From a candidate division FCPU426 bacterium (GTDB lineage: Bacteria; Oederibacteriota; JAAXVQ01; JAUVAV01), in assembly GCA_040756875.1 (NCBI GenBank), contig JBFLYH010000002.1, forward strand, positions 981,246 through 1,045,245: a DNA stretch of 64,000 nt, written 5' to 3'. Made by a program: the position numbers and the translations under genes. Below the pieces are notes generated by a model. That model was not told where the DNA came from and ran no database searches. It worked only from the letters and a program-made list of their open reading frames with translations. Below are positions 503 through 57,100 of the stretch, one piece after another (the stretch's first letter is position 1; the number at the start of each line of letters is the position of its first letter).

Positions 503-1510
503 ATGACGCGAGCCGCCGTTTTTCACATTTGCCTTCTGGGCCTGGCGCTGGCTTTCAGCCGGCCGGGGCTGGCTTTGGACGTTCGTTTCGGCGATCCGGC
601 GGGCACCACGCCCGCGGCCAGCAGCGCCCTGCTGCCGCCGCTGACCTGCAAACTGCAGACACTGACGCCCAAACCGCGCCAGGGAGAGCCGGTTCAATTC
701 AGCCTCACTTTGCAGCTCCAGCCCGGCGTGGTGGCGGACTCGGGCACGACCCTGACCAGCCTGGGCGAGTGGGAAGTGCTGGGCGTGGAGCGCGGGCCGG
801 CGCAGGACCAGGAAGAAAAGCGCGTGCGCCAGGACCGGCTGACCCTGGTCACCTTTGCCAGCGGCAAAGTGGAAGTTCCGGCCTGGATCCAGACCTTCCG
901 GCTGGCCGACGGCCAGCCCGGCGAATTCCGGACCGCGCCCTTGACCGTGAACGTGGAGCCCGTGCCGCACCACTCCGGAGACCGGCCGGGTGAAATCCGC
1001 GGCTTGAAGCCGCAGCGCGGCCTGTTTGTCGCCTGGCCGTGGCTGTTGGCCGCCGCGCTCGCCTCGCTGGCCGTGGCGGCCGGATGGTGGTGGAGCCAGC
1101 GGCAAAAACCCGGCGCGCTGCCGTTCGCTGCGCCCAGCCGTCCGCCGGCCGAAGTCGCGCGGGAGCAGTTGGAGCGTCTGCGGCAGGCGGATTGGCCCGG
1201 CCAGGGTAACTTTAAAGCTTACTACGTCGAATTGTCGGCCATCTTGCGCTTGTATGTGGAAGGATGCTTTCAAGTGCCGGCGCTCGATCAAACCACGCCC
1301 GAGCTGCTCAAGGCTCTGAAACACGCGCGCGCCAAACTGCCGGACATCAATGCCAGCCGCGAGGTGTTGAACCGCAGCGACCTTGTGAAATTCGCCAAGT
1401 GGCTGCCCACGGCCGCCGAAGCCCAGGCGGACTGGCAGGCGGTCTGGGATATGGTTGAGCGCACGGAACCCAAGCCCGAGCCGGCGGAGGAACCCCATGC
1501 AGCTGGCTAA
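503..1510 (+). CDS. Bat-operon membrane protein: signal peptide, BatD-like N-terminal region, one TM helix, DUF4381-like C-terminal region
   Basis: 335-aa ORF; hydrophobic N-terminus, central TM (WPWLLAAALASLAVAAGWWW); sits between DUF58 and BatA genes. Confidence 0.5.
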   Translation: MTRAAVFHICLLGLALAFSRPGLALDVRFGDPAGTTPAASSALLPPLTCKLQTLTPKPRQGEPVQFSLTLQLQPGVVADSGTTLTSLGEWEVLGVERGPAQDQEEKRVRQDRLTLVTFASGKVEVPAWIQTFRLADGQPGEFRTAPLTVNVEPVPHHSGDRPGEIRGLKPQRGLFVAWPWLLAAALASLAVAAGWWWSQRQKPGALPFAAPSRPPAEVAREQLERLRQADWPGQGNFKAYYVELSAILRLYVEGCFQVPALDQTTPELLKALKHARAKLPDINASREVLNRSDLVKFAKWLPTAAEAQADWQAVWDMVERTEPKPEPAEEPHAAG

Positions 1511-2486
1511 TCCGTGGTGGCTGCTCCTGCTTCTGCCCGTGGCCGGACTAGCCTGGCTGCTGTGGCTGCGCAGCCGGCGGCCCGAGGGCTTCAAGTACGC
1601 GGAGCTGTCCTCCTGGCGAAAACTGGGCCCAGCGCAGGCCTTCGGCCCCGATGAGGCGATCTTCGCGCTTTTTATTCTCGGTTTGTGCCTGCTGGTCATG
1701 GCCCTGGCCAGGCCCCAAGCCGGCGTGAAAACCGAGGAAGTCACGGGCCGGGGCGTGGACATCATGCTTTGCCTGGACACCTCGGGCTCCATGCGGGCCG
1801 TGGATTTCCAGCCGCAGAACCGGCTGGGTGCGGCCAAGGAAACGGCCATCCAGTTCATCCAGGCCCGGCCGCGCGACCGCCTGGGTCTGGTGGTGTTCGG
1901 CGGCGCAGCCCAGACTGTCTGCCCGCTGACCGCGGACAAAAAGGCGCTGCTGGATTTCATGCGGCAGGTGCGGATCGACATGACCGGCGTGGACGGCACG
2001 GCGCTCGGATCGGCCGTGGCCCTGGCTGCGGACCGGCTGCGTTCCTCGAAAGCGGCCAGCAAGGTGATATTGCTTTTGACCGACGGCCGCAACAACACAG
2101 GGTCGGTTTCGCCGCTGACTGCAGCTAAAGCCGCGGCTGCGCTGGGGATCAAGATTTATGCGGTCGGCGCCGGGTCGCCCGGCGGCGGGCTGATTCCGGT
2201 CCAGGACCCGGTTTTCGGCACGCGCTACGCCCGCATGGAGCAGGACTTGGATGAGGACACATTGCGCGCCCTGGCCGCGGAAACCGGAGGCAGTTATTTC
2301 CGGGCCAAGGACAGCGAGGGACTCAAACGGATTTTCGAGCGCATCAATCACATGGAAAAAAGCGATTACCAGATCAAGGCCTTCACCCATTACCGGGACT
2401 TGTATTTCAACTGGCTGGCCGCTGGCTGGTTGCTGCTGGCCGCGGCCCTGGGTCTGCGTTACGCGGTTTTCAGGCGGTTGCCGTAG
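1497..2486 (+). CDS. batA: BatA-like von Willebrand factor A domain membrane protein
   Basis: Start moved to in-frame ATG at 1497 (MQLANPWWLLLL...); N-terminal TM pair then vWA domain with MIDAS-like DTSGSM. Confidence 0.8.
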   Translation: MQLANPWWLLLLLPVAGLAWLLWLRSRRPEGFKYAELSSWRKLGPAQAFGPDEAIFALFILGLCLLVMALARPQAGVKTEEVTGRGVDIMLCLDTSGSMRAVDFQPQNRLGAAKETAIQFIQARPRDRLGLVVFGGAAQTVCPLTADKKALLDFMRQVRIDMTGVDGTALGSAVALAADRLRSSKAASKVILLLTDGRNNTGSVSPLTAAKAAAALGIKIYAVGAGSPGGGLIPVQDPVFGTRYARMEQDLDEDTLRALAAETGGSYFRAKDSEGLKRIFERINHMEKSDYQIKAFTHYRDLYFNWLAAGWLLLAAALGLRYAVFRRLP

Positions 2487-2488
2487 AG

Positions 2489-2615
2489 AAGGGGGGATGG
2501 CGGCCTTTCACCCGCGGGACGGCGGCCATTGGGTAGGCCGCCTCGGCTTGCGAAAAACGATGCCTACCAGTGTTTTTCGCAAACGCCCGCTGGCGAAAGG
2601 CCGCCATCCCCATGA
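2489..2615. repeat. Palindromic intergenic element E1: 17-bp perfect outer inverted repeat enclosing two internal hairpins
   Basis: Arms GGGGATGGCGGCCTTTC (2493-2509) and GAAAGGCCGCCATCCCC (2595-2611); inner hairpins GGCGGCC/GGCCGCC and GCGAAAAAC/GTTTTTCGC; homologous to the element at 23945-24070. Confidence 0.7.
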
Positions 2616-2642: not shown

Positions 2643-4436
<1,794 letters not shown>

Positions 4437-4449
4437 GCAAGAGGACAGC

Positions 4450-22624: not shown

Positions 22625-23352
22625 CCGTCAAACCCAAAGACCGCCTGTTCATCGCCCTGGATGTGGATGATTTGAAGGCCGCGGACCATCTTATGAGCCG
22701 CATGCAGGGCGTGGTGTCACAGTACAAGCTGGGCGCGCAGCTGCTCACGGCCGCCGGACCGGAGGCCGTGATGCACGTGCGCCGCCGCGGCTTCGGCGTC
22801 TTTTACGACGCCAAGTTCCACGACATCCCGCGCACGGTCGGCGCGTCCGTGGCCGCGGCCTGCCGCATCGGCGCCACCATCGTCAACGTGCACGCCGGCG
22901 GCGGCAAGGACATGATGGCCGCCGCAGCCCAGGCGGCCCGCGACGTGGCGCACAAACTGCGCCAGCCCCGCACCCTGGTGCTGGGCGTGACCGTGCTGAC
23001 GTCGCTCACCCAGGCCAACCTGACCCGGGAGCTGGGCGTGCGGCGCCGCCTGCAGTCGCAGGTGGTGCAGCTCGCGCGCCTGGCGAAAGCCTCGGGATTG
23101 GACGGCGTGGTCGCCAGCCCGCAGGAGATCGCGGCCGTGCGCCGGGCCTGCGGCCGGGATTTCGTGATCCTCACACCGGGCATCCGGCCGGCCGGGGCCA
23201 GCCTCAATGACCAGAAACGCACCCTGACCCCGGGCCAGGCCATGGCCGCGGGCGCCGATTACCTGGTGGTCGGCCGTCCGGTGTACGAGGCGCGCGACCC
23301 GCTGGCCGTGGTGCGGTCCATTTTCAGCGAAATGGAGGAGTTCATGCGATGA
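22621..23352 (+). CDS. pyrF: orotidine-5'-phosphate decarboxylase
   Basis: ATGA-coupled; FIALDVDD and DAKFHDIP motifs. Confidence 0.85.
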   Translation: MTVKPKDRLFIALDVDDLKAADHLMSRMQGVVSQYKLGAQLLTAAGPEAVMHVRRRGFGVFYDAKFHDIPRTVGASVAAACRIGATIVNVHAGGGKDMMAAAAQAARDVAHKLRQPRTLVLGVTVLTSLTQANLTRELGVRRRLQSQVVQLARLAKASGLDGVVASPQEIAAVRRACGRDFVILTPGIRPAGASLNDQKRTLTPGQAMAAGADYLVVGRPVYEARDPLAVVRSIFSEMEEFMR

Positions 23353-23942
23353 CACCCGCGCAAGTGCAAACCCTGTTCGAAGAGTCCGGCGCCCTGCTCA
23401 GCGGGCACTTCCAGCTGACCTCGGGCAACCATTCCAACCGCTACCTGCAGTGCGCCCTGGTCACCCAGCATCCGGGGCATGCCGCGAGCCTGGCCGACGC
23501 CCTGGCCGGACGGTTCAAGGACCAGGACGTGGACGTGGTCCTGGGCCCGGCCGTGGGCGGCATCGTGCTGGCCCAGGAAGTGGCGCAAGCCCTGTACCGC
23601 CAGGGTCGCCGGCAGGTGCGCGCCATTTTTTGCGAACGCGTGGACGGCCGCATGGCCCTGCGCCGCGGGTTTTCGCTCTCGTCCGGGGAACGGGTGCTGG
23701 CCGTGGAGGACGTGGTGACCACCGGCGGTTCGGTGCAGGAAGCCGTGGCCCTGGCCCAGGCCGCGGGCTGCACGGTGGTCGGCGTGGGCTGCCTGGTGGA
23801 CCGCAGCTCCGCGCCGCCGCAACTCGGCGCGCCCCTGGTCTCGCTGCTCAAGGTGAACGCCGATTTGTTTCCGCCGGACAACTGCCCCTTGTGCCGACAG
23901 GGCCTGCCGGCCATCAAGCCCGGCAGCCGGGGATTAAAATGA
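23349..23942 (+). CDS. pyrE: orotate phosphoribosyltransferase
   Basis: ATGA-coupled; PRPP-binding motif VLAVEDVVTTGGS. Confidence 0.85.
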   Translation: MTPAQVQTLFEESGALLSGHFQLTSGNHSNRYLQCALVTQHPGHAASLADALAGRFKDQDVDVVLGPAVGGIVLAQEVAQALYRQGRRQVRAIFCERVDGRMALRRGFSLSSGERVLAVEDVVTTGGSVQEAVALAQAAGCTVVGVGCLVDRSSAPPQLGAPLVSLLKVNADLFPPDNCPLCRQGLPAIKPGSRGLK

Positions 23943-23944
23943 AA

Positions 23945-24070
23945 GGGATGGGTCGAAGATTCACCCTAGGGCGGACGGCGGTTTGCTCTGCAAACCGCCT
24001 CGGATCGAAAAATCCCCTTGCCAATGCGGTTTTTCTCAACGCCGCCTGCGGGTGAATCTTCGACCCGTGT
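23945..24070. repeat. Palindromic intergenic element E2, homologous to E1
   Basis: 17-bp perfect IR GGGTCGAAGATTCACCC (23950-23966) / GGGTGAATCTTCGACCC (24050-24066); inner hairpin GGCGGTTTG/CAAACCGCC (23977-23999); shares blocks GGGATGG, TTCACCC, GACGGCGG, CCGCCTCGG, CGAAAAA, GTTTTTC, CAACGCC with E1. Confidence 0.7.
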
Positions 24071-24116: not shown

Positions 24117-25034
24117 ATGCCTTCCCGCATGAAGAGCGCGCTCTGGTACCTGGCGCTCACGTTCATCCTCAGCTGGAGCTTGGTGGGCGTTGCGTTCTAC
24201 GGGCTCAAACTCCACCTCAACCAAGGCGCCGGGCTGGCGGTCGCGGTCCTTTATATGTTCATGCCCCTGTGCGCGGTTGTCCTCGTGCGCAAATTCATCC
24301 TGCGCCAGCCTGTCCGGGAAGCGCTGGGCCTGTCCTTCAAGCTCAATGCCTGGTGGCTTGTGGCCTGGCTGCTGCCGCTGGTTTTAAGCGTGGGCGCCTT
24401 GTTCGCTTCACTCCTGGTCCCGGGCGTGGAATGGTCCTGGTCCATGGAGGGGATGATCCAGCGCTTTGGCAGCCAGTTGACGCCGGCCCAGATCGAAGCT
24501 ATGCGCCAGCAAACCGCGGCTTTGCCCTTGCATCCCTTGTGGCTGGGGATGATCCAGGGGCTCCTGGCCGGCGTAACGGTCAATGCCGTGGCCGGGTTCG
24601 GCGAGGAAGCCGGGTGGCGGGGCCTCCTGCAGCGCGACCTGCAATTCTTGGGATTCTGGCGCTCATCCATCTTCATCGGGCTGGTTTGGGGCATCTGGCA
24701 CGTGCCGATCATTCTGCTGGGCCACAATTATCCCCAGCATCCTCGCGAAGGCGCTTTTTACATGGCGTATTTCACCATTTTAATGGCCCCCTTGTTCGCT
24801 TATATCCGCGCCCGCACCCGCTCCGTGGTGGCCGCGGCCGTCATGCACGGCACGCTCAATGCCGTGGCAGGCATTTCCTTCATGACCCTGGCGGGCGGGA
24901 GCGATTTGTCCGTGGGCCTGACCGGCCTGGCCGGCCTGGCGGTGCTGGCCGGCGCCAACGGCCTGCTGTGGGTGTACGACCGGTGGTTGAGCAAAGACCC
25001 GCTGATTCCGAATTACAGAACCTGGGTTTTCTAG
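24117..25034 (+). CDS. CPBP-family intramembrane metalloprotease (CAAX protease-like)
   Basis: Start at ATG 24117 (RBS AAGGAG); motifs EEAGWRG, FxxxH (WGIWHVP), HxxxN (MHGTLNA). Confidence 0.7.
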   Translation: MPSRMKSALWYLALTFILSWSLVGVAFYGLKLHLNQGAGLAVAVLYMFMPLCAVVLVRKFILRQPVREALGLSFKLNAWWLVAWLLPLVLSVGALFASLLVPGVEWSWSMEGMIQRFGSQLTPAQIEAMRQQTAALPLHPLWLGMIQGLLAGVTVNAVAGFGEEAGWRGLLQRDLQFLGFWRSSIFIGLVWGIWHVPIILLGHNYPQHPREGAFYMAYFTILMAPLFAYIRARTRSVVAAAVMHGTLNAVAGISFMTLAGGSDLSVGLTGLAGLAVLAGANGLLWVYDRWLSKDPLIPNYRTWVF

Positions 25035-29621: not shown

Positions 29622-29645
29622 TTAAAGCAGACAGGGTGATTCGAG

Positions 29646-29702
29646 AGCAGACAGCAGCAAGGTGAAAGGGCAGCCACTGCGTTCACCTTGCTGCTGTCTG
29701 CT
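29646..29702. repeat. 21-bp perfect inverted repeat with 15-nt loop
   Basis: AGCAGACAGCAGCAAGGTGAA (29646-29666) / TTCACCTTGCTGCTGTCTGCT (29682-29702); direct repeat AGCAGACAG also at 29625. Confidence 0.8.
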
Positions 29703-29904
29703 TATATTGTATCTGATTCACTGTCCGAGTGCCGGATGGCGCTCAGTCCGATTATACCCGCCCGGCGCCTTGAGCCAAGCATTAAGTTGCTGGACGCCCA
29801 TTTTTCTTCTCTATCTCGCCGCAAGCCGGAGGCAGGGCAGGGACGGGAGCCGGGTCTGACGAAAATCATTCATTTAAGCTGGTCGGCGTCAAAGGCTTTA
29901 AAAG

Positions 29905-29933
29905 TTGACAAGGCCATGACCCCCGACTATAAT
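29905..29933 (+). promoter_or_regulatory. consensus sigma70-type promoter TTGACA-17-TATAAT
   Basis: Perfect -35 (29905-29910), 17-nt spacer, perfect -10 (29928-29933); about 280 nt upstream of the YYY gene. Confidence 0.55.
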
Positions 29934-30212
29934 TGCACCAATTGTATTAAATTTTAGGCTTTTTCTGACCCTCGGTCTGTTCCGCCCTACCCGAACGAAC
30001 GGGTTCCCGCAAGTTATCCCGCAACGCCGAAGACCTTGGGTATGCCAGGGTATAAAGGCGTCATCAAGCGTTGCGGGATGTCGCCTGCCACTTGGCCGAC
30101 GACGCGAGGATGTTTAGTTATACCCCGGGCTTCGCCCGGGGGCTCTATATATATAATGTAGGCGTGGGCTTGGCACGGGAATGGCTTTGACACAGGAAGG
30201 GGATTCGCGCTG

Positions 30213-48059: not shown

Positions 48060-48136
48060 GACTGCCAAGCTCAAGGTAGGGGCGTTCAATTGAACGCCCC
48101 TACAAAACGAAAACCCACCGAAAGGAAGAAACATCC

Positions 48137-51156: not shown

Positions 51157-54100
51157 ATGGTACTGCGCAAGCGGCAAAGCTCCATAACCCTGTTGCTTTC
51201 CTTATTATTAGTCATACCGCCCGGTACGCTGCAAGCCAAGAGCCAGCCCGAACCAACCGAGCCTTCCACCCGCCCTGAGCGCCTGACTCCCGAAATCGTC
51301 GTCCTGGTGCCGGATGTGCTGGATTCGGCCAAGACCTTAGCCAATGCCAGGCAGCGGTTGATCAAACGCGGCTTGAAATCCCGGGACGTGGTCGTGACCG
51401 CTGAACAGCCGGGGTTCAGTCGTTCGGGCGGGTTGGACCAGCAGGCGCGGCAGCTGGAAAAAATCCTGATTGATCTGAAAATCCGTCAGCCAAGCGCACG
51501 GTTGCACGTGGTCGGCAAGGGCAGCGGCGGCTTGGTGGTCCGGCAGTACCTGGCGAGGCAGGCGGGCCTCGGGCCACAGGCAGTGACCGTGGAAAGCGCG
51601 GTCGGCTTGGGCGTGCCGCACCACGGCCGCTGGTGGGCGGGCGTGGCCAGCAGCCTGGGCGCCAAGTCGCAGGCCCTGGCTGACCTGGCGCCGGGTTCTG
51701 CGTTTTTAAACCAGCTTAACCAGCCCATTGAAGCGCGCCGGGCCGAGGTCAGGCGCGTGCAGGGTGTGCTGGCCAGCCTGCGCCAGCCGAACCTGCGGGC
51801 CCAGGTCCGGGGCAAACTGTCAGCCATTGAAAGCCAGCAGGCGGACATACGCGAATCCGTGGAGCGGGCTCTGCACTTTCCACAGCGCGCCGCTTTGAGT
51901 CCTGATGACCAGAAACGCCGCCAGGAAGCGGAACGGTTCAAGGCGAAACTCAACCGCCTTCCGGCCGCGGAAGCGCGGCACCAAGCCGCGTCCCTGGCCG
52001 CTGCCAGCCAGCGCCAGGTTCTGGCCGCGGAAAAATTCGCAGGACAATCCCTCCCTTGGCAGGCGCCGGCCCGGCAATCAACCCGTACGGCCGAAGAGGC
52101 CCTGGTTCGCGCCCAACAAACCCTGCTGGAAAAACTGTCCCAGCCCCAGGCCAAGTTGCCGGCCGGATTCCAGCCGCCGAAGACCCAAGCCCAGCCAGGG
52201 CAATGGCTTTCCGTTTTGCAGGCCCTGGAGCACAGCAGCCAGGCTGCGGCTGAAAAAGCCGCCAGCCAGGCTGGCGGCCTGCAAAAACAATTCGCGTCCC
52301 TGGATTTCGAAGGGCTCGAAGCCCGTTTAAAAAACGCCGGCACGGAGGCAGCGGGGCGCCTGCCTGCCGACTTGCTGCAACTCAAGCCCCAGCACATGGC
52401 CAGGGACCTGGAGCGCGCCGCGCGCAAATATGAAACCGCGGCTGCGTTGGAAGCTGCCTGGCGGCAGAGCCAGGCCGGCAAAGAGCAGTGGCTCGATCAA
52501 GTGGAGCGGTTGACCCAGGTCGCGGCCAAACAGCAACTGGCCCGGGACCTGGCGGCGTACGCCGCAAAGGCCGGACTTGCGCCGGCCCGGCTGCGCGCCG
52601 GGGCGGCTGAGGCAGGGGATTTGCCCGAGCGCGCCCAGGCCGCGTACCGCGCGTGGCGCCAGAAGGAAGCCGCCCTGGACCAGGCTTTTGCCGCGGCCAA
52701 GGAACAGGGGTTGGAAACAATCGTCAAACCCGAGTTTTGGAAACTGCGCGAGCGGACGGCCCAGGTGGCTGAGCGCACCCACCAGGCGATTGCGCGCGAC
52801 AGCCTAAAAGCCTGGGAAGGACTGGCAGCCCTGCGCCTGGGGCCCGCGGCCAAGGAACAGGCCATGTTCGCCCAGGCCACTGAGCACCGCCTTAACCGCG
52901 AACTGGCAGCCTGGAAGCAGGAACTGCTGAAGCCGGATTGGGAAGCGCGCTTTTCGCAGGCTGCCTCGGCCCTGAACCGCAGCCTGCCGGCGGCAGAACA
53001 GGCCGGAGCCTTGAAGCAGGCTTTAGTACAGCAGGCAGGCGCTTTGCAGTCGGCTTTGGCCGCTGTTCGTTCCGACCTGGCGGCGCGTGAGCGGCAAAGC
53101 GCCTGGGAGCGGTTGGCAGCTGACAGCCGACAGGCAGCTGCGCAGTTGCTGCAGCAACAAGCGGATCATGGCTTCGTGGCCGACGCCCTGGCTGCCGGCA
53201 ATTTCCTGGCCGCCGGCAGAAAACAGGAACAGCAACGCCTGCTGGACCTGGTCAGGCAGAATGATCCGGCTGCCAGCCGTCAGGTGGCGGTGCTGGCCCA
53301 ATTGGCGCTTCAGCGCCACGGGCTGCAGTCCAGGCTGCTGGAGACCGGCGGCCTGGATGCAGGGCCTGCCCCGCAGTTGCTGGAGCGGATCGCCGGGCAA
53401 GCCAAGGCCCTGGGGCTGAAGACCGCCCTGCCACCCAAAGCAATGGAGCACCTGGCCCAGGCCCAGGAGGAGCGGCAAAACCGCTGGAAACAACTGAACA
53501 CCAGCTGGAAGCGGCAGTGGTCGCAGGCTGTCCAGGAGGACCGCGAACGCAACCAGCCGGCCAAAGCCTGGTCAGCCTGCCAGGAGACAGTTGCCGTCAG
53601 CCGCAGCCTGGCTGTGCTGGAAGACTGCTCGGCCGCGCTTTCGCAAATGAAATCCTGGCGGGATATGGGAACCCAAGCCTCGGGCCAGCAAGGCCGCTGC
53701 CAGGTCCTGGAGCAGCAGTTGTCCGCTTGGCTGCAAACGTCCGGACTTGGCAGCCGGATCCCGGCCGTGCAATCAGCCGCAGCCGCGGCCCAGGAAAAAT
53801 TTGCGCCCGCGGCCTGGCAAGCCATTCTCAGCCAGTGCGGCCAGAAGCAGGAACAGGCAAGCGCCAGACTGCAAAACTTGAGGCGCGAACTGGCCAGGCA
53901 GCCTGAATGGATTTTGCCGCAAGTCGCCGGAGTGTCGGAACAGCTGGCTCAGGCAGCCCAGGACCCCAGCCGGATCAAGGGCTTGTTGCTCGAAATTTCC
54001 GGCTTGCGCGAGCAAACCCAAAAACACCTGACACAGGCGCGGGAACAAACCCTGGAGGCGCTCTGGCCCGGACAGGGCAAGGGGAAAGCTTCGGCCCTGG

Positions 54101-57100
54101 GCCAGGAGTTGAATCAAGTTTTATCCAGCCTGCAGGACTACCGCCAGTTGAGCCGGATGAATGCCCAGGCTGATACCCTGCAAGACCTGCTGTCAGCGAA
54201 AGCGCTGTTGTGGCAGCAACAGAATCTGCAAGCCCAAGGGCTCGGAGCGGTCAAGACCCTCGAATCCCTGCTCGCCCAAACAGCCGGAATCCCGGGCAAA
54301 CCCTCCGGGCAAGTCTTCAGCCAGATCACCGCCACCCTGAGCCTGATGCAAAAGCTGACTGCCAACCAGATGCAATCCGCGGGATTGCTGCCAGGCCTTA
54401 TGGATCGGGAGTGCGGGATGCCGGCCAAAGCCGCGCTCCAAAAAGAATGGAGAGCCTGGCTGGACGGGCAGTTTTCCGCCCAGCAAGGCTTGGATTGGGC
54501 CGGCGGGCAGCTTCAATTAAGCACAGTGCTGTCAAACCCAGGGGCAGGCTGGCGGCAACAGACCAACGCCCTGGCCACTGGCATGCTGGAGAATCTGGTG
54601 GACCAGGCGGCTGAGCGCCAGATCAGCCTGGGCCTGGCTGAAGTGCAGCGCTTGAGCAACGAGGCGCGGGAACTGCTTTCAGCGCCTGTGCGCCAATTGC
54701 GCGCCGAACTGGGGCAATTGGGGCTGTTGGACCCAAGGCAGGATCAGGGGCCGGGCCTGAGTATCGTGTCCTGGGCGCAGCATTTCGTGCAGCAGGGCGT
54801 GGCCCAGGGCGTGGCGCAGGCCCTGGCCAGCCTGGAGCGGACGCAGGCCCAGTTCAGCAACCGCCTGGAGCGGGGCCTGCTGGAACTCGCGCGCGCCCAG
54901 GCCACCATGGCGATCAATGCCCTGAGCGGCCAATACGCGGGCCTGGCCGTTGAGGTGAAGCGCCTGTGGGAGGGCGTTGGGCCTGAGGCCGGCGAAGCGT
55001 TGAACCTGCAGGGATTGCTGAACGTGGCCCAGGACCAGGAGTTTCTGCAAACCTGGCAGGAAGATATCTTCAGCAAACTGGTGGCGGAGAATCCCTTGCA
55101 GGCTGACCTGGGACGGCTGGGCCAGGTTGCCTCCTCGCTTCAGGCTTTGATCGACCAGCCGGCCAGCCAGCTCGGCGACTGGCTGGTGAGGAGCGGAGTG
55201 AACCTGGGCGTGGAGCGGCTGCAGTCCCTGCAGGCCGAAGCCCAGAAGCTGCTGCACGAGGCTATGACCACGGGCGCGGTCAACGAGCTGCGGACGCGCC
55301 TGAATGCCGTTCTGCTCAAGTTGGACCAGGAAGCAGGCCGCTTGAGCCGTTATCTGGACCAGACCCTGGCCAAGCTTCCGTCCGGAGTGGTTCCCGCGGG
55401 CTTGCGGGACGCGCTGCGGGAATTGCGCGACCTGCCCGGCACCCTGGCTGCCGGGATCGACGGCCTCATGCAGGACGTGGAGAGTTACCTTGCCAACCAG
55501 GTGCTGCAGTCCGGATTTGACCGCCTGAACGCCATGCTCAACCAGTACGGCGGACAGGCGTCCTTGTGGGCCGTGGGCGCCAGGCTGCAATTGTCGCTGA
55601 CCGAGATTTCCAGCCTGGGCCAAACCGCGGTGGCGCAGTTGGAAGTGTCCCTCGCGGATCTGGGGACCGGAAATCTGACCGGTTTGTGGGAAAACGTGGC
55701 AGCCGGGCTCTCGGATTTCGGCGGGAACCTTCTGAACCTGCTGCAGGATTTCGTGGCTAGCGCGAGCCCGGTGGATTTGGGCGGGTTTCTCAACATCACG
55801 GGCCTGGCTGATTCGCTGTGGGCCTCGGCCGGCGAAGTGCTGGGGCAATTCACGGGCCTGTTCGAGCTACAGGTGCCAATGGCCGGCGATTGGTGGCAGG
55901 CAGACGAGCTGTGGCAGCAGTTGTCCGGCATTTTCAATGCGGAGAACTGGCAGCTTGATTTCTATCAGGCTGCGGACGGGTTCCTGCGCAATATCAGCGA
56001 AAACCTGGAAAACCTGCTCAACTCGGGTCTGGCCTGGGTGAACGACCGCTGGACAGAATACATGAACCAGGCGCGGGAATACTGGGACATCCTGGCCGGC
56101 GGGCCTGGCCGGTGGTGGGATGAACTGGCCAGCGGCCGCTGGGACCAGAGCCTGGGCAACCTGATGACGCAATACCTGCCGCCTGAATACCAGCCTGCTG
56201 TGAGCGCCCTGCAGCAGGTGCGCCTGGCGTTCAACGCGGACTTTCAGCTGAGCGCGGAGTGGATTACGAACATTTTGGACAACTTAAGCGCCTACCTGAG
56301 CGAGGACGCGCGGGCCGTGTACCAGCAGGTGCGCGAGTTATATGATACGGGCAGCGAATATTATTCCGCTGGCAGCGACATCCTCAACGCCATTTCGAGC
56401 GGGGATGTCACCAGCGTGCTGACCAACATCAGCCGCCTGGGCAGGTTTCATTTCAACACCGGCGGACAGATGTACCAGTGGGGCAAAGGCCGGGCCAATA
56501 AAAAAGGGAAGTACGACGGCCAGGCCCTGTCGGCTGCCAGCGAGGAAGAAGTGCTGGCAGCGTACGTCAATGCCCTCCCAGCCAGCATGCGCGAACAGGC
56601 CCTGCGGATGCTGGAAAACGGAACCCTGCCCGGCAGTAATCCCGAACGCGAAATCGACGTCGCGGACTACGACCCGGACGTGGACGGCCAGCCAGCTGGC
56701 CCGGCAGCCTATGAAGCCGCCCAGGAAGCTGACGCGTCTGCCACTTTGCCAGATGTAGCAGCCGCATCCGCTTCGGATCGTCACCCCGGCGTGCCTGAAG
56801 CCGGGGTCCAGGAGCAAACTCCCCCCCGCAGGTCCCCCTCTTTGCCAAAGAGGGGGCGGGGGGAGTTGGATAGTGGCTTAGGCGGGAACGACAGTCAAGG
56901 CTCAACAACCGATGAGGGTGATGCTTCTGCTGCCGGCACCCAGCCAGGCGGTGAAGGCGAATCCGGCCCCCCAGACCTCGGCCCGCCGCGCATGTCCGGC
57001 GTGCCCACCCCGCCGCCTGTAAAGCAGAGCTTGTTGGATAAGATGAAAAATGTATACACCAACCTAAATCCAGTTGGATTATCCAAGAACGCCGCCCAGG

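Follow-up and report, generated by a model that had tools for sequence, protein, structure and literature searches.

Outside cultured Proteobacteria, Firmicutes and cyanobacteria, hardly any REP, REPIN, Correia or ERIC sequences are known. The Correia (CREE/NEMIS) elements of Neisseria and the ERIC-type MITEs of enterobacteria are intergenic, 100-150 nucleotides (nt) long, and consist of an inverted repeat around a conserved core, which is co-transcribed to yield long RNA hairpins. Their terminal inverted repeats are conserved among copies and are accompanied by target-site duplications (TA for Correia). Elements of this type have been reviewed (PMC2229807, PMC10969869), and both binding of RNase III and altered expression of adjacent genes have been reported for CREE (PMC2649163). 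The REPIN is a doublet of REP sequences mobilised by a RAYT, an IS200-like Y1 transposase whose single-copy gene is flanked by the repeats. It is an extragenic element of about 100 nt that forms a long hairpin in single-stranded DNA or mRNA; some of its blocks are highly conserved, while another part is constrained in length and pairing alone and often has compensatory changes (PMC3116915), and REPINs are inherited vertically at orthologous positions (preprint 10.1101/2024.10.14.618302). Here we describe a family of palindromic elements from a 64-kb stretch (the window) of a metagenome-assembled genome of candidate division FCPU426. The window includes two copies, copy A between a batA-like and a batB-like gene, and copy B between pyrE and an rce1-like gene (Table 1). 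The candidate phylum that carries the family has no cultured representative. In layout the family inverts the REPIN plan, a conserved branched core being placed inside a helix of free sequence.

All full copies of the element are 117-122 nt long and include an outer helix of 17-20 bp, a second helix of 5-6 bp and a three-way junction with two hairpins, X and Y. The orientation of a copy is defined by the order of its core, which on the strand designated F runs outer arm, second helix, hairpin X, CCGA, hairpin Y, GU, second helix, outer arm; on this strand hairpin X reads TTGCGAAAAAC...GTTTTTCGCAA and hairpin Y reads GGCGGCC...GGCCGCC. In a REPIN the same REP sequence is present twice, inverted, at the conserved ends and the variable paired part lies inside, whereas in the present family two different tandem hairpins are conserved centrally and it is the outer helix that varies while staying paired. 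The two nevertheless resemble each other in that small hairpins also occur in an alternative fold of REPINs. A REPIN/RAYT system would be expected to have tens to hundreds of near-identical copies per genome, while the window has a low density of two copies, about 73% identical, in 64 kb. Copy numbers are also far higher for Correia and ERIC elements, and unlike them the present family has copy-specific arms and no duplication was found. The attC sites of integrons conserve structure more than sequence, fold from one strand, reach lengths that include about 120 nt, may branch in their distal part, and are located just 3' of an open reading frame (ORF). The distal Y-shaped core is, however, conserved in sequence in the present family and is the variable part in attC, and the R and L core sites are absent here. 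Template-switch quasi-palindromes would fit a paired outer stem that changes at the neutral rate, but they reflect a mutational process and not an element family, and the process leaves both an invariant core and the spread to several loci unexplained.

The presence of a second structured copy after pyrE, as claimed by the original prediction, is confirmed by its perfect 17-bp arms, its hairpins, comparison with shuffled sequences, and a covariance model (CM) built without copy B, which recovers it with 48.7 bits (E value about 1e-9). The predicted span, 23945-24070, does contain the element, although its proper limits are 23950-24066, i.e., 7 nt after the pyrE stop codon and 50 nt ahead of the rce1 start. 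The layout of two inner hairpins said to be common to both copies is indeed found in each, with 67 nt between the arms. When mismatches are allowed, the arms extend to 26 nt (92% complementarity) in copy A and to 25 nt (88%) in copy B; the outer helix of copy A has 17 bp without any mismatch, and 20 bp with one G·U on the minus strand. Hairpin X of copy B has only 6 bp when formed by the plus strand, but 9 bp, including three G·U, when formed by the minus strand. The sequence blocks proposed to be shared, seven in number, are exact and in the same order in five cases; GGGATGG lies outside of the paired stem in copy B, and the block given as CAACGCC is CAAACGCC in copy A. A small peptide was rejected as an explanation, as the ORFs that start from GGGATGG in copies A and B read the conserved core in different frames and the corresponding copy in the relative L262 has no ATG.

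The window has exactly two occurrences of the core pattern GACGGCGG-N(5-25)-CCGCCTCGG, and none of 100 shuffles has any. The fold z-scores of both copies against shuffled sequences are about -8 to -10 for either strand, folded as RNA or as DNA, and the fold energies, for both strands alike, range from -65 to -90 kcal/mol. A search of the window with the CM and with filters off revealed, beyond A, B and their reverse-strand matches, no further family copy; the next score (24 bits, 29647-29701) is that of an unrelated plain hairpin. The outer arm of copy A, GGGGATGGCGGCC (2493-2530, 2596-2611), resembles the lead-in to its own hairpin Y, GGGACGGCGGCC, so that alternative pairings are possible, and the outer arm of copy B weakly resembles its own hairpin X. 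Such resemblance between arm and inner hairpin may be due to chance in G+C-rich DNA or may be a trace of how a nested palindrome originated.

Loci of related genomes were reached through homologues of the flanking proteins (pyrE, BatA, rce1), and about 20 kb was examined per relative. Four more copies were identified in this way, which answers the question of further copies raised by the original prediction, and the dataset comprises six copies at three loci of four genomes (A and B of the window, one each in L262 and L259, and C and D in L242). In L262, whose BatA is 87% identical, the copy between batA and batB has the same orientation as in the window. In L259 (BatA 83%), the copy at the same position is flipped relative to both. 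Each of these orientations is uniform, among all 10 L262-type contigs and all 3 L259-type contigs respectively, but each set is a single strain, the contigs of any one relative differing at 0-1 positions across 1.4-1.7 kb, which makes within-species variation uninformative. In L242 (pyrE 87% identical), and only there, a full copy C with a wholly different outer stem follows pyrE. About 100 nt beyond C a further copy, D, begins and is cut off after 77 nt by the end of the contig; D has 83% identity with copy B and is on the opposite strand, and its remaining half was not recovered through a search with the rce1 homologue. Paralogues are in general about 70-75% identical.

The element is absent from a relative with 80% pyrE identity (L244 and eight more contigs), in which the spacer between pyrE and rce1 measures 67 nt. 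The sole remnant at this element-free site is GGGTAAATCCCCGACCC (L244 8021-8037), which matches the 3' arm of copy B (24050-24066) at 14 of 17 positions. In register with the flanks in the window and the 3' arm only, the L244 spacer reads TAAAAGGG-TAAATCCCCGACCC-TTTTTGGGTGTGA, the window counterpart being TGAAAGGG, followed by the 5' arm, the core and a segment ending in GGG, and then TGAATCTTCGACCC-GTGTTGGGTGTGA. The simpler explanation is a deletion of one arm and the core between the GGG repeats. It would fit equally well if the arm were the old target sequence, which was copied in inverted form upon insertion. The only syntenic outgroup available has an extra gene in the pyrE-rce1 spacer and so gives no polarity to the change at the L244 site.

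More distant relatives had no copy, neither those at 66-67% BatA identity (in the batA-batB spacers or in the approximately 20 kb examined of each) nor those at 72-73% pyrE identity (in the same extent). A scan of genome contigs with GACGGCGG-N-CCGCCTCGG gave, among the matches listed, only chance matches in G+C-rich DNA, and a scan of metagenome contigs with CCGCCTCGG-N-CGAAAAA-N-TTTTTC likewise gave only chance matches among those listed. Inspection, nhmmer and the CM revealed no true copy among the 240 loci listed by the two scans. One of the candidates, L181, matched two patterns and was rejected as a simple hairpin after a tRNA gene. Viral contigs gave no match to the specific core pattern, nor did plasmids and phages with blastn. 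Rfam 15 had no match over the whole window and, at E values up to 10, gave only chance-level matches far below gathering for A, B and C/D. A three-way-junction ribozyme or riboswitch was considered and rejected, since the junction strands (CGU / YYGA / GU) misfit the hammerhead core and there is no Rfam match. Loop-loop kissing was also dropped as a family feature, because the loops of A-type copies have 3-4 complementary bases but the loop of copy B has only 3 nt. The family is thus far restricted to one narrow clade, of about genus rank, within candidate division FCPU426, and no described family was matched.

The original prediction had noted that pairing is preserved in the outer stem because both arms changed together. 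This is borne out by the alignment of the five full copies to the CM, in which 96.4% of the helix pairs are standard. Of 45 pairs, 28 have changed on both sides (outer helix 16 of 19, second helix 4 of 6, hairpin X 4 of 13, hairpin Y 4 of 7), and none of 500 shuffles reaches any of these measures. As a control, sliding the partners by 1-3 columns reduces pairing to 40-52% and the two-sided changes to 3-8 pairs. Fitting to the model inflates these figures somewhat, but the helices are also evident in the independent minimum-energy fold of each copy. In the second helix, GGCGG pairs with CCGCC in copy B, GCGGG with CCCGC in copy A and GAAAG with CTTTC in copy C. No relationship is seen among the outer arms of the copies (GGGGATGGCGGCCTTTC in A, GGGTCGAAGATTCACCC in B and AGTCTTTGGACGCGCGGAT in C), and the helix ends are GGGG.../...CCCC, GGGT.../...ACCC and AGTC.../...GACT, respectively.

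The three orthologous copies between batA and batB provide a clean comparison of where selection acts, with the fourfold-degenerate sites of batA in the same three species as the neutral baseline. Identity between species is 0.62-0.71 at the fourfold sites, 0.57-0.70 in the outer helix and 0.67-0.85 in the loops, while the stems of hairpin X (26 nt) and hairpin Y (14 nt) and the junction (4 nt) have an identity of 1.00 in every pair of the three species. The probability of the observed core conservation at the neutral rate is 1e-7 to 3e-11, where the core is taken as these 44 positions together with the 12-nt second helix. The core is under purifying selection at the sequence level. The outer helix, in contrast, drifts at about the neutral rate and yet is about 96% paired. 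Between the window and L262 it has three substitutions and a 1-nt indel, all of which are mirrored on the opposite arm. Independent mutations with subsequent selection would hardly yield compensatory change at the neutral rate, least of all with an indel that is mirrored. In the quasi-palindromes of E. coli, template switching copies clusters of changes and indels from arm to arm and so restores complementarity (PMC7202029). Because such copying gives the same pattern without any selection, covariation of the outer stem alone is no safe proof of structural selection. The covariation announced by the original prediction is thus present, but its inference of selection on structure is weaker than claimed, since drift at the neutral rate with arm-to-arm copying would suffice. 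The case for function rests instead on the core, as the X stem, the Y stem and the junction are invariant across three species, and the neutral-rate but paired outer helix illustrates that covariation alone can mislead.

The two strands of the element are not equivalent. In each of the five full copies the fold of the F strand is more stable than that of the complement, by 2.1-6.9 kcal/mol. Among the helix cells of the model alignment, 10 are G·U on F and 3 are A·C, which correspond to G·U on the other strand; a hand count, with three more G·U on F from hairpin X of copy B, gives about nine independent events versus one. This bias of G·U toward the F strand is suggestive, though from a small sample. 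F is antisense to the flanking genes in four of the six copies (A, B, L262 and C of L242) and sense in two (L259 and D of L242). Moreover, the conservation of junction and stems in L259 follows the frame of the element itself and not that of the mRNA. Beyond the outer helix, nothing is common to the copies or moves with a flipped copy.

The original prediction had proposed either a functional RNA or a hairpin-recognised mobile element. Both are still the leading readings, and the present data choose neither. We give a tentative preference, held with rather less than even confidence, to a non-autonomous, hairpin-recognised repeat that would be REPIN/MITE-like in its lifestyle and of a new type outside each of the named families; it is neither a MITE nor a REPIN because its ends are not conserved between copies. 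Copies of such a repeat would have entered intergenic spaces, including those within operons, and would then have undergone long vertical inheritance with occasional loss, gain or flip. The working form would be the F strand folded as a three-way junction, in which the two inner hairpins and the junction nucleotides might form a sequence-specific module read by a factor encoded elsewhere, possibly a single-strand DNA transposase or recombinase. The long outer helix would need only to be a helix, i.e., a sequence-free clamp that may drift freely, with its arms kept complementary through selection for pairing, through templated correction from arm to arm in replication, or through both. Copies borne in operons would also be transcribed, and the resulting very stable RNA stem (-65 to -90 kcal/mol) would probably affect mRNA processing or decay as a side effect. 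Of this picture, we infer that the copies are mobile, that a trans-acting factor exists, that DNA and not RNA is the active form, and that mRNA is affected at all. The repeat-element reading is supported by the spread of an invariant branched core with a copy-specific helix over several loci, by its persistence at one site across species, and by its apparent use of one strand whatever the direction of the host genes. Gain or loss and orientation differ between close relatives at the same flanking genes, the L242 contig breaks off within a copy that is only about 100 nt from another, and other, unrelated palindromic inserts at operon junctions of related genomes indicate that such insertion recurs in the clade.

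Several observations weigh against this repeat-element reading. The window proteins tested include no transposase, RAYT or integrase, and no RAYT-type protein was found at the approximately 20-kb loci of the relatives, which cover only a small part of each genome. The terminal arms vary among copies, unlike the inverted repeats of MITEs or the REP sequences of REPINs. The low density (2 copies in 64 kb) and the divergence of the paralogues (about 70-75% identity) give no sign of recent transposition. Target-site duplications, which the original prediction had suggested looking for, did not materialise, as the arms are not bordered by any consistent direct repeat; the best repeats in the flanks are 3-7 nt long, in the range of random window positions, with the 7-nt one in the upper tail. 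The G·U asymmetry comes down to a few independent events, and one conserved U·G position accounts for 4 of the 10 cells. Conservation of sequence in place over three species is also unlike a decaying selfish insert, and points to a host function or to ongoing recognition.

A host function is the substance of the leading alternative, possible but on balance unlikely, in which the element is a cis-acting part of polycistronic mRNA: a stable, branched stem-loop would serve as a site of RNase III-type cleavage or as a block to exonucleases, and would uncouple stability or translation between upstream and downstream genes (batA and batB, pyrE and rce1). Both window copies are located between co-directional genes, 6-7 nt past the stop and 40-50 nt before the start, and have near-perfect helices of 17-20 bp that are highly stable on both strands. 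The copy between batA and batB is kept in three species with its core under purifying selection, and Correia elements, which bind RNase III and alter the expression of neighbours, are a precedent (PMC2649163). However, selection acting on mRNA fits poorly with F being antisense in four of six copies, as the better-folding strand that bears the G·U pairs is then not the one transcribed with the genes, and in the flipped L259 copy the mRNA carries the complementary junction and loops. The close relative L244 is without copy B, distant relatives are without the element between batA and batB, and a mere stability hairpin would have no need of 44 invariant core positions. The repeat-element and mRNA-element readings are not mutually exclusive, since a repeat resident in an operon is transcribed anyway. 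An improbable explanation takes the elements as functionless palindromes, relics of old insertions or duplications whose arms are complementary only through perfecting by template switching, without selection. An outer stem and loops near the neutral rate and a mirrored indel are what arm-to-arm copying predicts (PMC7202029), the outer stem of L259 has 3 mismatches in 20 (6 in 27 counting the internal loop and second helix), and one relative, L244, has lost most of copy B. On the other hand, relics would hardly keep 44 core positions identical in three species against a neutral 62-71% (P about 1e-7 or less), nor would paralogues keep the architecture and a length of 117-122 nt despite two-sided changes in all four helices; the strand asymmetry of the G·U pairs argues against relics as well. 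It is unlikely, but conceivable, that the invariant Y-shaped core, read on one strand and clamped by its free-sequence helix, is the substrate of an undescribed recognition system. It might be acted on by a new transposase or recombinase of single-strand DNA, or else be a new ribozyme or structured RNA module. Either case would set the family apart from REPINs and MITEs, as a novel class of genomic element that persists vertically in an uncultured phylum.

The other explanations have still lower standing. For a stand-alone small RNA gene on the F strand, encoding an RNA of about 118 nt with paired ends like Y RNA or 6S RNA, we see little likelihood. The consistently better folding of F, the bias of G·U to it, and a conserved three-way-junction core with variable loops, as is typical of structured RNAs, speak for such a gene, but as nothing outside of the outer helix is conserved or moves with a flipped copy, the gene would have nowhere to place its own promoter or terminator. 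None was found: a scan for sigma-70-like promoters was negative at the copies on either strand, as was a scan for intrinsic terminators at copies A and B on either strand, without a U tract (the 3' flanks read ATGAAG... and GTGTTG...). No Rfam family corresponds even at permissive thresholds, and several diverged copies per genome together with differences in presence or absence would be unusual for a housekeeping RNA. An inverton, in which the outer arms are the inverted repeats and the 67-84 nt core flips to switch the downstream gene, is very improbable. Inverted repeats of 17-26 bp do surround a short segment upstream of genes, and the segment has opposite orientations at the same site in different species. 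Nonetheless, the arms of copies in one genome are unrelated, so that no single site-specific invertase could serve them, the core has no promoter-like sequence in either orientation, and no recombinase gene was found nearby. Moreover, the contigs of each species (10 L262-type and 3 L259-type, each set a single strain) show one orientation, and the asymmetries of the inner arms flip along with the core, leaving no break points at a fixed inner boundary. Least credible of all is a single-strand recombination site like attC or the ends of IS200/IS605. A long helix that conserves structure and not sequence, strand-specific folding, a length in the range of attC, and copies just after ORFs agree with it. 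The RYYYAAC/GTTRRRY boxes, however, are absent at the helix base on either strand, and the ends of A, B and C carry no AAC/GTT pair. The neighbours are housekeeping genes of the pyr and bat operons, and the window has neither a cassette array nor an integrase. The two inner hairpins also differ from each other, unlike the hairpins at the left and right ends of IS200/IS605 elements such as IS608. Should a partner enzyme or processing activity of the repeat be found, the family would offer a compact model for the persistence of hairpin elements inside operons; otherwise it is one more lineage-specific repeat family for annotation pipelines and RNA-motif screens to recognise.

Table 1. Window coordinates of the two copies, their parts and the adjacent genes.
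Feature	Position	Strand	Remarks
Copy A, 119-nt element	2493-2611	- (F strand)	Between batA-like and batB-like genes; CM 133.5 bits
Copy A, 5' arm of outer helix	2493-2512		Pairs with 2592-2611
Copy A, 3' arm of outer helix	2592-2611		Pairs with 2493-2512
Copy A, hairpin Y, GGCGGCC-attgggta-GGCCGCC	2521-2542		Stem identical in three species
Copy A, hairpin X, (GC)TTGCGAAAAAC-13 nt-GTTTTTCGCAA(AC)	2546-2584		11 bp at 100%; stem identical in three species
batA-like VWA gene	1497-2486	+	Stop codon 6 nt before copy A
batB-like VWA/TPR gene	2652-4436	+	Probable ATG 40 nt after copy A
Copy B, whole 117-nt element	23950-24066	- (better-folding F strand)	CM match 23948-24068 (-), 48.7 bits
Copy B, outer-helix arm GGGTCGAAGATTCACCC	23950-23966		All 17 bp pair with 24050-24066
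Copy B, outer-helix arm GGGTGAATCTTCGACCC	24050-24066		Perfect 17-bp complement of 23950-23966
Copy B, second helix, 5' side GGCGG	23970-23974		Pairs with CCGCC 24042-24046
Copy B, second helix, 3' side CCGCC	24042-24046		Partner of GGCGG 23970-23974
Copy B, inner hairpin Y, GGCGGTTTGC-tct-GCAAACCGCC	23977-23999		10 bp, 100% complementary
Copy B, junction TCGG (CCGA on F)	24000-24003		Conserved in copies A and B and orthologues of A
Copy B, inner hairpin X, built on GAAAAA/TTTTTC	24004-24040		9 bp on the minus strand, 6 bp on the plus strand
pyrE (orotate phosphoribosyltransferase)	23349-23942	+	Last gene of the pyr cluster; stop codon 23940-23942
Rce1-like CPBP intramembrane protease gene	24117-25034	+	Downstream neighbour of copy B

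Palindromic inserts inside operons seem to recur in the clade. The spacer between batB and batD is only 13 nt in the window (4437-4449), but holds a different insert of about 190-210 nt in L262 (11206-11416) and L259 (4632-4859); in L262 this insert forms a palindrome of several hairpins, closed by an outer stem of its own (CGTCCAAATG.AG / CTCATTTGGACG). Unrelated palindromic inserts with long stems are present at pyr operon junctions of more distant relatives (L253 5383-5695, L255 5717-5825 and L244 1882-2011), one of which has an outer stem of about 30 bp, and at the corresponding junction the genes of the window overlap. Downstream of rce1, the relatives with 80% pyrE identity carry an inserted pair of Gp49/HigB-like and HTH genes that resembles a toxin-antitoxin system (L244 9131-9864, also in L245-L250 and L275), and the window has no such pair at the corresponding position.

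Further features of the window lie outside of the studied family. A run of CAG/CAA repeats at 4054-4203, within the batB-like gene, probably codes for glutamine. The gene-free stretch at 29622-30212 (about 590 nt) includes a perfect 21-bp hairpin with a 15-nt loop at 29646-29702 (AGCAGACAGCAGCAAGGTGAA...TTCACCTTGCTGCTGTCTGCT) and a second inverted repeat at 30016-30079. A near-perfect palindrome of 28 nt, GTAGGGGCGTTCAATTGAACGCCCCTAC, with a 13-bp stem and no T tract, is found at 48075-48104, 16 nt past a stop codon, and the Logan contig of the source genome ends exactly at this palindrome by coordinate arithmetic (13724 + 34380). Toward the end of the window (56000-64000), G+C declines steadily from about 0.64 to 0.37. 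The ORFs at 57933-58433, 58300-59364, 59457-60050, 60149-60982 and 60992-62887, as well as the preceding ORF of 2259 amino acids (51157-57936), have no Pfam family, and the region from 56000 to 64000 may be a foreign island.

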